From UHGV virus genome UHGV-0153635: a DNA stretch of 44,021 bases. The stretch is one strand, 5' to 3'. Below the pieces are notes generated by a model, which saw only the letters and a list, made by a program, of their open reading frames with translations, was not told where the DNA came from and did not search any database. This document shows, piece by piece, positions 2,872 through 5,604 of the stretch; the stretch's first letter is position 1, and the number at the start of each line of letters is the position of its first letter. Both the position numbers and the translations under genes were made by a program. Origin of the DNA: a virus.

Positions 2872-3114
2872 CTAAATCTCCTGGTCTGATTTACCGTCAA
2901 CAATAAGCAGCACTGGCTTATCAGGATAAGCGCCCTGGAAGCTCTGTAGCAGGCGCTTGCCTAAGCCCTTGCAGCCACCCTCCGGGTCCTCGTAAAGCTC
3001 GTACCCGGGCTGCCCTGTGACTTCTACGGTGCAGTACGGGATAGGTGCTGCTACGTTGCTGCTCAGTAGCAGCACTGCGGACTTAACCGCGATAGTAATT
3101 GTCTGAATCATCAT
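2872..3114 (-). CDS. hypothetical protein (80 aa)
   Basis: ORF track; ATG start; overlaps upstream stop. Confidence 0.5.
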   Translation of the reverse strand: MMIQTITIAVKSAVLLLSSNVAAPIPYCTVEVTGQPGYELYEDPEGGCKGLGKRLLQSFQGAYPDKPVLLIVDGKSDQEI

Positions 3115-3353
3115 TTAACTCCTCTTGGGATACGCCCTTTGCTGGCGTAGTAGCTGTTAATCTTGCTGTCGGTCTTGTTACCGATACTGCGTACGTTCGT
3201 ACTGAAGCCCTGTGGCCTTGCCCGGTCAGTAGCCTCAAAGGTCTGAAGCTTCTTCAGGCGCTTACGCTCCTCAGAGCCTTCTGGAGTCTGCGCAGCAGCT
3301 ACCAGAGCTTTGATTGACTGCTCGCGCTTCTTACAGAGTTTTAAGTAACCCAT
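3111..3353 (-). CDS. hypothetical basic protein (80 aa); first sizeable gene downstream of the early promoter block
   Basis: ORF track; ATG 3353 with AAGGGG RBS; Lys/Arg-rich. Confidence 0.55.
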   Translation of the reverse strand: MGYLKLCKKREQSIKALVAAAQTPEGSEERKRLKKLQTFEATDRARPQGFSTNVRSIGNKTDSKINSYYASKGRIPRGVK

Positions 3354-3699
3354 TTGAATCCCCTTAATTCTGCACCCTCGCTGTGAGGACGCTTAACTAA
3401 GAAACTTCTCTTAGCGAGTCACCCTTTACTGGTTAGACTCTCATCGGTTCTCCCTGCGGGAATGCCCGGACGCACCCTTCGACACATTTTCTTTGTGGCC
3501 TAGTGTCTCGCTCGACCTCCTCAGCAGATTTTTAACGTGACGCTGGGGACCCCACCTGACTTTAGCGGCACTTCACAGTGCGTTTGCTTGCTATCTAAGT
3601 TACTGCGTGTTTCTGTACTTGTCAAGCTCTGTTTCTGAACTTTTGCTCTTAACTCTCTAGCTAGCGCCTTGATAGGCTGGCTAGTTGCCAGCGCTACCG

Positions 3700-3846
3700 T
3701 TATAGCTTAATGCATTTGTGTCTAAGGAACCAGACACGCAGCCTACCTTGCTCCCCCTTGAGGGTTACAAGGCCGTGCTCATTGATTGTATCTACCGTTA
3801 CAATGAAACCAGTAGGGGTTAAGAATGAGTCGTTTTGCTTAATCAT
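3700..3846 (-). CDS. possible small ORF (48 aa) in the early leader region
   Basis: Manual translation; ATG 3846 with AAAGGTG RBS; no homology evidence. Confidence 0.2.
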   Translation of the reverse strand: MIKQNDSFLTPTGFIVTVDTINEHGLVTLKGEQGRLRVWFLRHKCIKL

Positions 3847-3998
3847 GATAGTACACCTTTAGTTAATGAGCCTATCAAGACACTAGCCGGATTGTTAAAG
3901 AGCGCTACTGCCTACTACTTATCGATTATCCAGGCTTCGTATGCCCTGGCGCTACTCCCCGTTACCGGGCGGCTCCTTGCCTCTCGATGTTGTGTTCA

Positions 3999-4026
3999 CT
4001 ATAAACAGGGCACTTCTAAATGTCAA
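3999..4026 (-). promoter_or_regulatory. sigma70-type promoter candidate (TTGACA - 17 bp - TATAGT), reading toward lower coordinates
   Basis: Minus strand reads TTGACAtttagaagtgccctgttTATAGT; hexamers and 17-bp spacing read directly. Confidence 0.5.
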
Positions 4027-4029
4027 ACT

Positions 4030-4515
4030 TTATTTTGCTCTGTGGAACTCTTTTGTTAATGCCGCGCTCACACGGACAGCCGCTGAGTGCGCAACCTCTG
4101 CGCTGCTATAACCCTCCTTGCAATAGCGCTTACCGTCCACCACTACCACGTATTTAAAACCGTCTACAGTTCGCTGCACCCATTTAAAACCGCTGGTATT
4201 ATTAGCCGGACGTTTACTATTGTGCCTGTTCTGCTGAGGTGTTGCAGCTCTCAGATTCTCCACTCTATTATCTTTTGGATTCCCGTTAATGTGGTCAACA
4301 ACCTCTGGGTAGAACCCGTGGTGCAGAGCAAATATAATCCTGTGTATACAGTAGTATGCGCCATCTACACGGATTACTCGGTAACCTTTAGCAATCTGAG
4401 TACCTAATGGTTTATTGGCCTGCCGCCCTTTACCAGGCACCCTCCAGTACAGAACGCCCTTTGTACTTTCATATCGCATGTTGCTACGCACAAAATCTAA
4501 ATCTAAATCCGCCAT
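4030..4515 (-). CDS. HNH homing endonuclease (paralog family member 1)
   Basis: VDHINGNPKDNRVENLR...QQNRHN HNH motif; ATG 4515 with AGAGGG RBS (track start 4551 is further upstream). Confidence 0.8.
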   Translation of the reverse strand: MADLDLDFVRSNMRYESTKGVLYWRVPGKGRQANKPLGTQIAKGYRVIRVDGAYYCIHRIIFALHHGFYPEVVDHINGNPKDNRVENLRAATPQQNRHNSKRPANNTSGFKWVQRTVDGFKYVVVVDGKRYCKEGYSSAEVAHSAAVRVSAALTKEFHRAK

Positions 4516-4634
4516 ATAATACCCTCTTAGTGTGTTGAAAAAGGGAAGCACTGTACAGCTAGTGCCTCCCCTCGGTTAATGTCACTGCCCGCACCGCATT
4601 AGCAGCGCTTTCCCGGTGCAACGTAAGCTATAGG

Positions 4635-4901: not shown

Positions 4902-4903
4902 TT

Positions 4904-4955
4904 AAATGTCCTCAAATTAATTACCTATAGTATATAGCGTAGCGCCTATACGCTA
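4904..4955 (-). repeat. copy 1 of a duplicated ~45-bp upstream element (second copy 5555..5604)
   Basis: Shared core AAATGTCCTCAAATTAATTACC plus TATAG..AGCGTAGCG..TATA with hairpin potential, read on the plus strand in both copies. Confidence 0.5.
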
Positions 4956-5534: not shown

Positions 5535-5554
5535 AGTACCCTCCTCAACATAGT

Positions 5555-5604
5555 AAATGTCCTCAAATTAATTACCCTCCTTATAGAGCGTAGCGAGTAT
5601 AAGG
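5555..5604 (-). repeat. copy 2 of the duplicated ~45-bp upstream element
   Basis: Same core as 4904..4955. Confidence 0.5.

Follow-up and report, generated by a model that had tools for sequence, protein, structure and literature searches.

The early control region analyzed here occupies positions 4030 to 3354 of UHGV-0153635, a viral genome of 44,021 nt (this whole stretch of DNA is referred to as the window). All the genes around the region lie on the minus strand, and the features described below are read on that strand, with transcription running towards the lower coordinates. By BLAST of the region, the closest relatives were the Enterobacter phages Entb_48, phiKDA1 and SDFMU_EhYP (EhYP). 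We observed three stacked modules. The first is a promoter, P1, with a short leader (leader A). The second is a boxA cassette, in which a boxA element and two mutually complementary arms bracket an open reading frame (ORF) of 48 codons (ORF48, 3846-3700). The third is a second promoter, P2, with a structured leader of about 240 nt (leader B), which serves the first sizeable gene (3111-3353, 80 aa, phrog_9286, function unknown). The original prediction had seen here a near-consensus promoter followed by a single leader of about 640 nt. Most of its parts were indeed present: the TTGACA-17-TATAGT promoter, the lack, on the coding strand between 4030 and 3353, of any ORF exceeding 48 codons, the 48-aa ORF with a good Shine-Dalgarno sequence, and the gene starting at 3353. 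The single leader had to be given up, as P2 splits the region into a P1 unit (leader A, cassette and ORF48) and a P2 unit (leader B). An exact boxA, a long-range inverted repeat and an HNH gene ending 4 nt before the -35 hexamer of P1 had also been overlooked.

The boxA, GCTCTTTAACAA (3903-3892), has the same sequence as the E. coli rrn boxA core and agrees with the rrn-type consensus GYTCTTTAANA (Baniulyte et al., PMC5725501). No other exact match occurs in the window. This boxA lies some 87 nt downstream of where P1 is predicted to start and 46 nt upstream of the ORF48 start codon. The identical 12-mer also occurs at 813 in T7, with promoter A3 (750) and gene 0.3 (925) on either side, and in one to three copies each in the early regions of SP6, K1-5, K1E, K30, PhiM1 and Entb_48. 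About 60-75 nt around boxA showed 83-92% identity in BLAST comparisons among otherwise distant phages, and the ORFs that follow it in those phages encode unrelated proteins. The SP6, K1-5, K1E and phD2B genomes carry arrays, with a boxA ahead of every cassette in one operon leading to anti-restriction genes (ocr-type, S-adenosylmethionine hydrolase). We also considered the possibility that the boxA module was a copy of a host rrn leader or of plasmid DNA. This was rejected, since the 141-nt module (3825-3965) had no match in E. coli genomes apart from boxA, and the cassette (3640-3912) had no match among plasmids. The T7 boxA has been mentioned in reviews and is not known to have been assigned a function, and no paper on boxA in T7-group phages was found in the searchable open-access literature.

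Consensus boxA elements in the 5' part of non-ribosomal transcripts of the host polymerase also occur in the 5' untranslated region (5'UTR) of suhB, where the outcome is repression, and upstream of CRISPR arrays, where boxA protects the non-coding array against Rho (PMC5725501, PMC7665894). Those cases have no leader-trailer helix, unlike the present one. As the boxA of the window is less than 50 nt from a start codon, and as P2 directly downstream could make read-through from P1 dispensable, boxA might act here as it does in suhB. The Nus complex would then repress the translation of ORF48 and promote Rho termination, making the element an attenuator of P1 transcription. We consider this quite improbable. 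In the SP6, K1-5, K1E and phD2B operons a boxA precedes each cassette, and termination each time would be self-defeating, while in T7 the boxA sits on the sole path from the A promoters to the early genes. An attenuator also leaves the conserved long-range helix unexplained.

This helix is formed by a GU-rich 5' arm, GGCTAGTGTCTTGATAGGCT (3869-3888), placed just after boxA, and a 3' arm, AGCCTATCAAGGCGCTAGCT (3659-3678), placed just after the stop codon of ORF48. The arms (3888-3869 with 3678-3659) make 20 contiguous pairs, of which three are G.U, across a distance of about 190 nt. The inverted repeat as a whole spans 3649-3678 and 3869-3898. With small bulges, the helix is carried over boxA itself, which pairs with an anti-boxA, GTTAAGAGC (3645-3653), at the right-hand end of the inserted cassette; with these two included, each arm measures about 35 nt. 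The fold of 3910-3640 had an energy of -99.3 kcal/mol (z = -5.64), and none of 200 shuffles was as good. Just before the 3' arm, and overlapping it by 3 nt, is a small hairpin, GCTGGC-AACTA-GCCAGC (3676-3692). It is conserved in other phages, where variants with the strands swapped occur (GCCAGC..GCTGGC in K1E, GCTGGC..GCCGGC in K30 and GGCTGGC..GTCAGCC in K1-5).

We observed the same design in 13 other phages, including SP6, K1-5, K1E, K30 and PhiM1. Long-range pairing was scored by contiguous-pair runs, since RNAduplex energies gave no discrimination (background mean -27.5 kcal/mol, minimum -60.8 kcal/mol) and were dropped. Among the 27 boxA copies of the 14 phages, 18 had a helix of 18-30 contiguous pairs, spanning 155-583 nt and enclosing one to three small genes. 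In these 18 copies, the helix begins 3-18 nt after the start of boxA (i.e. 0-6 nt past its end, or inside it). Two further copies had interrupted helices. The arm sequences vary by cassette, each with its matching partner. The arms of the SP6-926, K1-5-710 and phD2B-990 cassettes are GCTTAGTGTAACCTATGTAAGCCGT and its complement, and those of Proteus T2-2, MR4 and phD2B-707 have other sequences, each complementary to its partner. The last boxA before the anti-restriction gene (T7, SP6-1536, K1-5-1467, K30-931 and phD2B-1612) is followed by a local hairpin with no long-range helix. In SP6, K1-5 and T7 these local hairpins are long and clearly stable, with z between -2.3 and -4.4; those of K30 and phD2B are weaker (z = -1.7 and -1.8). 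From its sequence, K30 looks like T7 plus one cassette ahead of the boxA that precedes ocr.

When 14 cassettes were aligned, 98.9% of the cells were paired, and compensatory changes were seen in 10 of the 20 pairs; neither value was reached in any of 500 shuffles. As a control, the partner was slid by 1-3 columns, and the pairing fell to 26-44%. The pairing is kept by compensatory change. The cells that were not Watson-Crick comprised 23 G.U pairs against 3 non-pairs, and one U.G was kept in 10 of the 14 cassettes. This excess of G.U over non-pairs therefore points to an RNA of the coding strand and not to a repeat at the DNA level.

The cassette itself is an insertion, present in some relatives and absent from others. 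In comparison with phiKDA1, EhYP and SU552A, the extra segment of the window extends from boxA to the anti-boxA; the cassette is missing from phiKDA1 and EhYP, where the two hairpins of leader A are followed directly by P2. Entb_48 has a cassette at the same site, with the same arms and a different ORF (L003 2243-2428) that is 70% identical to SP6 gp1 (L004 711-884). A whole cassette, ORF and arms, is therefore common to Slopekvirinae-like and Molineuxvirinae phages. In the window, the payload (3700-3859) consists of the Shine-Dalgarno sequence AAGGTG (3859-3854), a conserved sequence of the slot that ORF48 inherits, and of ORF48, an ORFan. ORF48 belongs to no Pfam or PHROG family, had no tblastn match in 50,697 phage records, and matched itself alone among 5.8 billion proteins. 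The original prediction had allowed for small regulatory peptides or structured RNA in the leader. The structured RNA was borne out, whereas a conserved regulatory peptide from ORF48 was dropped, as no homologue appeared in any search.

Such polymorphism can also be read at the DNA level. The inverted repeats could act as terminal repeats of a small mobile cassette (moron-like, or like a miniature inverted-repeat transposable element, MITE) or as recombination hot-spots, with the boxA-like ends providing homology for exchange and the RNA helix being a by-product. The segment missing from phiKDA1 and EhYP coincides exactly with the inverted repeat, from boxA to anti-boxA; the same slot holds different ORFs in different phages; and the cassette common to Entb_48 and SP6 joins phages of different subfamilies. 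T4-type phages have analogous mobile units, the PeSL cassettes (PMC2839356, PMC4122927), where short conserved motifs likewise flank variable, mostly orphan early ORFs and mark the boundaries of insertion, deletion and replacement between related phages. The likeness to PeSL is functional only and concerns a different phage family: a PeSL consists of an early promoter and a stem-loop terminator, whereas the flanks here are boxA and mutually pairing arms, with no promoter inside the repeated unit. Against a purely DNA-level origin, DNA repeats should give A.C as often as G.T, which the coding-strand count does not bear out. The arms keep one orientation with respect to boxA and the direction of transcription, neither a transposase nor a clear target-site duplication was seen, and the 12-mer is exactly the rrn boxA and is present also in T7, where it has no long-range partner. 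We regard the DNA-level explanation as unlikely; it is compatible with an RNA function of the helix, and the two are not exclusive.

Helices of 19-21 bp that bracket genes were also seen with no boxA ahead of them, their arms ending in GCTTGATAGACT, in Klebsiella phage 6939 (L135, 2276-2294/2465-2483), MR4 (L138, 2207-2225/2421-2439) and Edwardsiella phage WAG25P1 (L139, 1906-1926/2103-2123). A boxA is therefore not a strict requirement of the cassette system. In phage Peggy (L137), the 3' arm of the first cassette (1323-1342) has a second 20-bp partner further downstream (1735-1754), and alternative long-range pairings of one arm are thus possible.

The arrangement of the cassette resembles that of a bacterial pre-rRNA. 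In enterobacterial rrn operons, a boxB hairpin and boxA are followed by boxC, which lies inside a 25-40-bp helix closing around the 16S rRNA. This leader-trailer helix is an RNase III substrate and is essential, and covariation with G.U interchange preserves it; in the current model for its formation, the Nus/SuhB complex tethers boxA to the polymerase, and boxC is thereby already positioned when the trailer emerges (PMC10250234, PMC4807359). The order here is the same: a hairpin (3949-3930, at the position of boxB), an exact boxA, a GU-rich arm at the position of boxC, the enclosed RNA and a trailer arm. The pairing, too, has the length of a leader-trailer helix (at least 17-20 bp) and shows covariation with G.U interchange. 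The differences from rrn are that the helix encloses an mRNA of about 190 nt with 48 codons instead of a 1.5-kb rRNA, that the 5' arm, GU-rich as it is, does not have the boxC sequence, and that in the window boxA is paired with the anti-boxA.

With T7, the region shares strong host-type promoters near the left end, the identical boxA 12-mer 60-90 nt downstream of a promoter, and a double-stranded RNA element directly after boxA. In T7 this element is a local hairpin, which is reportedly the R0.3 RNase III site; the T7 record used carries no annotation of it. Here it is a long-range helix around an ORF, with the partner arm 190 nt away, unlike the local, irregular intergenic hairpin of about 50-60 nt of a T7-type RNase III site. 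The positional equivalence with R0.3 is the main reason for proposing that the long-range helix may be an RNase III substrate. The region also differs from T7 in its second promoter with a 240-nt structured leader, as T7 has nothing like leader B, and in the gene for the phage RNA polymerase, which in this phage group lies late in the block for DNA metabolism (judged from the relative PAS7). Of the T7-like early region originally proposed, the early control by host-type promoters stands; the phage, however, is phiKDA1/KP34-like and not T7-like in the narrow sense.

P1 (3998-4026) consists of TTGACA (4026-4021), a 17-nt spacer and TATAGT (4003-3998), with a predicted start at about 3991-3988. 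It scored 11/12 as a sigma70 promoter, the best match in the window and the sole one at that score on either strand of the entire 44 kb. P1 follows a terminator-like hairpin and heads the early genes. Its -10 hexamer and initial transcribed sequence are kept in seven relatives, among them Entb_48, phiKDA1, EhYP, the metagenomic phages L012 and L087, and coliphage PAS7. The initial transcribed sequence, CATCGAGAGG (3989-3980), takes the form CATCGAGAGG or CATCAACGAGG across relatives, and CATCGAGAGG resembles the beginning of the T7 A1 transcript. P1 is thus predicted to be a host-type promoter of the T7 A1 kind.

Comparison with relatives showed two conserved hairpins in leader A (3930-3972). 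Hairpin 1 is CCCG-GUAA-CGGG (3969-3958), and hairpin 2, upstream of boxA, is CCAGG-GCAUACGAAG-CCUGG (3949-3930). The stem sequence varies while its complementarity is kept (CCAGG/CCTGG, TCAGC/GCTGA, TCGAC/GTCGA, and CTAGT/ACTAG in K1-5), and the loop of hairpin 2, GCAUACGAAG, is conserved among the relatives despite the changing stems.

P2 (3597-3625) consists of TTGACA (3625-3620), a 17-nt spacer and TAACTT (3602-3597), with a predicted start at about 3594-3590. The original prediction had listed it as the weaker candidate. The site is there, but weakness is not what the comparison suggests: about 52 nt around P2 match 142 phage records (121 from Klebsiella phages), no other part of the region is conserved as well, and the SU552A and KpV475 records annotate it as a promoter. 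Its GCAGTAA -10 region resembles that of T7 A2. Both P1 and P2 have -35 and -10 hexamers at a spacing of 16-18 nt on the coding strand, upstream of small early genes.

Leader B (3354-3594), predicted to be a conserved structured 5'UTR, runs from the 5' motif AUAGCAAGC to the ATG at 3353. It contains hairpins at 3581-3568 and 3468-3457, followed in the 3' domain by the stems Pc (3440-3436/3420-3416) and H2 (3414-3409/3402-3397) and the hairpin H3 (3392-3372). The Shine-Dalgarno sequence (3365-3360) is covered in an alternative stem (3402-3395/3369-3362). The leader is 93% identical in EhYP and 71% identical in Entb_48 and phiKDA1. Its last 90 nt or so recur in coliphage P64441, where they follow a TTGACA-16-TAGAAT site and lie downstream of the gene for DNA polymerase. 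A profile search returned three copies each in L087 and PAS7 and two each in L075 and L013. Every one has a strong sigma70-type promoter with its AT-rich upstream region before it and a different gene after it; two of the copies (the second in L013, and PAS7 2993-3100) have the 5' domain only. In the related phages, the promoter and leader B module thus occurs one to three times per genome, ahead of unrelated genes. On sequence comparison, both this module and the boxA cassette appear to be portable, as their location and cargo vary from one phage to another.

RNAalifold predicted 33 pairs in leader B, 12 of them with compensatory changes. In 15 copies of the 3' domain, Pc, H2 and H3 were paired in 97% of the cells, and double changes were seen in 45 cells where 14 were expected, a number that none of 500 shuffles reached. 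The loop and single-stranded motifs are conserved as well. A TCTTAG segment can alternatively pair with AATTAAGG downstream, which would cover the start of the Shine-Dalgarno sequence; this alternative was paired in 96% of the cells. In one lineage with a changed middle base in TCTTAG, both of the alternative partners had also changed. Since this co-change is a single event, a regulatory switch is hinted at rather than established. Leader B is purine-rich and C-poor (C/G of 0.66-0.77, against 0.83 genome-wide), a composition that would be unfavourable to the loading of Rho. We rejected CGAUGAGA as a hammerhead-like motif, as the core does not fit, and likewise a conserved small ORF (a 22-codon ATG frame at 3490), as the aligned phiKDA1 position has no start codon (judged by eye).

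The family of leader B appears to be narrow. A covariance model of its 3' domain found no copies in 30 additional IMG/VR loci or in the leaders of Drulisvirus (KP34-like) phages, which differ behind the shared P2. When genome and metagenome contigs were scanned by pattern, most matches were due to chance, and L075 and L087 were the sole real ones. Two side observations concern its copies. In PAS7 (L134), an unannotated hydrophobic ORF of 33 codons, MGRIFGTTFLIAATIFNITLPFLAIYGLIMLFA (1275-1376), lies right after a leader B copy and before the first annotated gene of the unit. Four short records named "Listeria phage LM 4-11-1 / 4-14-1" (OR847472.1, OR849530.1, OR847174.1 and OR848645.1) contain sequence like that of Slopekvirinae coliphages, leader B copies included, and are probably mislabelled or contaminant contigs.

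RNA elements just after early promoters are also found in lambda (nut) and HK022 (put), and those sites reprogram the host RNA polymerase. No N-like protein and no boxB matching that of lambda was identified here, and leader B has no detectable similarity to nut or put. It might still act as a put-like RNA in cis that makes the polymerase resistant to termination, or it might be released as a stable small RNA acting in trans on a host factor. Such a role would suit its position right after strong promoters that head long host-transcribed operons (one of which, in PAS7 and P64441, follows the gene for DNA polymerase), its lack of a boxA of its own, the copies that have the 5' domain alone, and the conserved loop and single-stranded motifs. 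On the other side, leader B resembles no known RNA, either in sequence or by Rfam: across leader A, the cassette and leader B, Rfam gave no hit at E<=10 (3200-4200), and the whole window gave none at the gathering score. In all cases the 3' domain ends at the Shine-Dalgarno sequence, which the alternative pairing covers, and this argues for control of translation or processing in cis. The narrowness of the family, with no extra member found when Drulisvirus loci and more IMG/VR contigs were scanned, also counts against it, and we consider a put-like or trans-acting role of leader B unlikely.

Judged by its sequence, the source of the window is a phiKDA1/KP34-like podophage (Slopekvirinae, Koutsourovirus; phiKDA1 itself is classified in this genus, family Autographiviridae). 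The tailspike gene (7824-6160) and the endolysin gene (8388-7834) lie directly "upstream" of the early region; the window is therefore a circular permutation of a genome of about 44 kb, in which the region analyzed here is the left-end early region. P1 is not at the very left end. It is preceded by a leftmost unit of two small genes, encoding 193 and 88 aa, then by the terminator-like hairpin and U run that close this unit (4535-4573), and last by a gene of the HNH_3 homing-type endonuclease family (4030-4515, from Pfam and PHROG searches), which stops 4 nt short of the -35 hexamer of P1. In Entb_48 and phiKDA1 the identical hairpin sequence is found immediately 5' of P1, with no comparable ORF between the two. 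This suggests that the HNH_3 gene is a homing-endonuclease insertion into the promoter-proximal spacer. A scan for tRNA and tmRNA genes found none.

Further to the left, a 48-nt direct repeat (83% identical, 4903-4950 and 5554-5601) abuts, on the upstream side, the start codons of the 88-aa and 193-aa genes. Copy 1 contains, on the coding strand, CTATATACTATAGGTAA, which resembles the core of a T7-type phage-polymerase promoter, and copy 2 deviates there. A long-range complementarity of 21 bp (5823-5843/5609-5629, minus strand, four G.U) was also seen in the non-coding left end, which is rich in GGCTCTG repeats; it could be a terminal-repeat or packaging sequence instead of an RNA structure.

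Taken together, these observations have led us to propose, with a probability of roughly 0.6, that this is an early region for the host RNA polymerase in which boxA and a leader-trailer helix imitate a pre-rRNA, followed by a portable promoter-leader module. On entry of the DNA, the host polymerase would start at P1 and P2. The boxA on the P1 RNA would load NusB/NusE together with NusA, NusG and SuhB, and the polymerase so loaded would resist Rho across the poorly translated RNA. The 5' arm would be held by the Nus complex close to the RNA exit channel until its partner has appeared, and RNase III would then cut the helix, yielding a small mRNA with protected ends. On the P2 RNA, leader B would stabilize and protect the 5' end and evade Rho, and it may gate the ribosome-binding site.

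Several observations weigh against this proposal. The phages used for the helix analysis were chosen by BLAST similarity to the boxA module and are thus a biased set. In an unbiased IMG/VR sample of 111 boxA-like sites, 8% had a long-range helix of at least 16 bp, compared to 0.3% of the controls; the cassette is therefore a feature of a subset and not a general property of boxA. In the window, as in the other "terminal" cassettes (PhiM1, Entb_48 and L015), boxA is itself drawn into the helix, which would compete with the binding of NusB/E. The helix begins 0-6 nt after boxA, where rrn has a boxA-boxC gap of 18-19 nt. The boundaries of the insertion are those of the inverted repeat, which also fits a mobile element at the DNA level. 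ORF48 may be a very young gene or no gene at all, and the payload is thus perhaps not a real gene. As for P1, 0.37 sites of 11/12 are expected by chance per window, and at least one was found in 30% of Markov-1 simulations. The hexamer match alone is therefore not significant and proves nothing by itself; the support for P1 comes from its position, the conservation of the -10 hexamer and the initial transcribed sequence.

The fold energies of leader A with boxA (z = -0.8) and of leader B (z = -1.1) were also ordinary. With these two unremarkable sub-segments, and with P1 as the best match in the window, one could return to the earlier picture of one long passive leader from P1, in which P2 is a weak internal promoter-like site and the structure and the small ORF are incidental. 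We think this very improbable, given that P2 is the most conserved element, that specific helices are backed by covariation, that an exact boxA is present and that the cassette is polymorphic between relatives.

The proposal can be extended to the early genes of many SP6-, PhiM1- and phiKDA1-like podophages and of the T7-like coliphage K30. These would be pre-rRNA mimics, with tethering through boxA and mini-mRNAs released by RNase III; the boxA-arm junctions would serve as homology for exchange between subfamilies, and leader B would represent a new class of cis-regulatory RNA switch. We put forward this joint scheme tentatively, with the odds somewhat against all of its parts being correct. 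Host-type early promoters and boxA are known, and we found no description of boxA-linked leader-trailer helices around early cassettes or of the leader B RNA.

If the proposed functions fail, what remains is a well-delimited, ordinary early promoter region. If they are true, phages have copied the folding and processing architecture of bacterial rRNA for small mRNAs, which would give a function to the long-noted and unexplained boxA of T7-group phages. The cassette, with a loop of about 200 nt as against 1.5 kb, would provide a compact natural test bed, and would bear on the debate as to whether the Nus/SuhB complex mainly blocks Rho or chaperones long-range RNA pairing. Leader B is a candidate for a new structured RNA family. 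For the engineering of therapeutic Klebsiella, Enterobacter and E. coli phages, the region would offer insertion slots and strong, portable promoter-leader modules. For the phages themselves, the cassettes would explain how orphan, often anti-defence, early genes are swapped between distant podophages.

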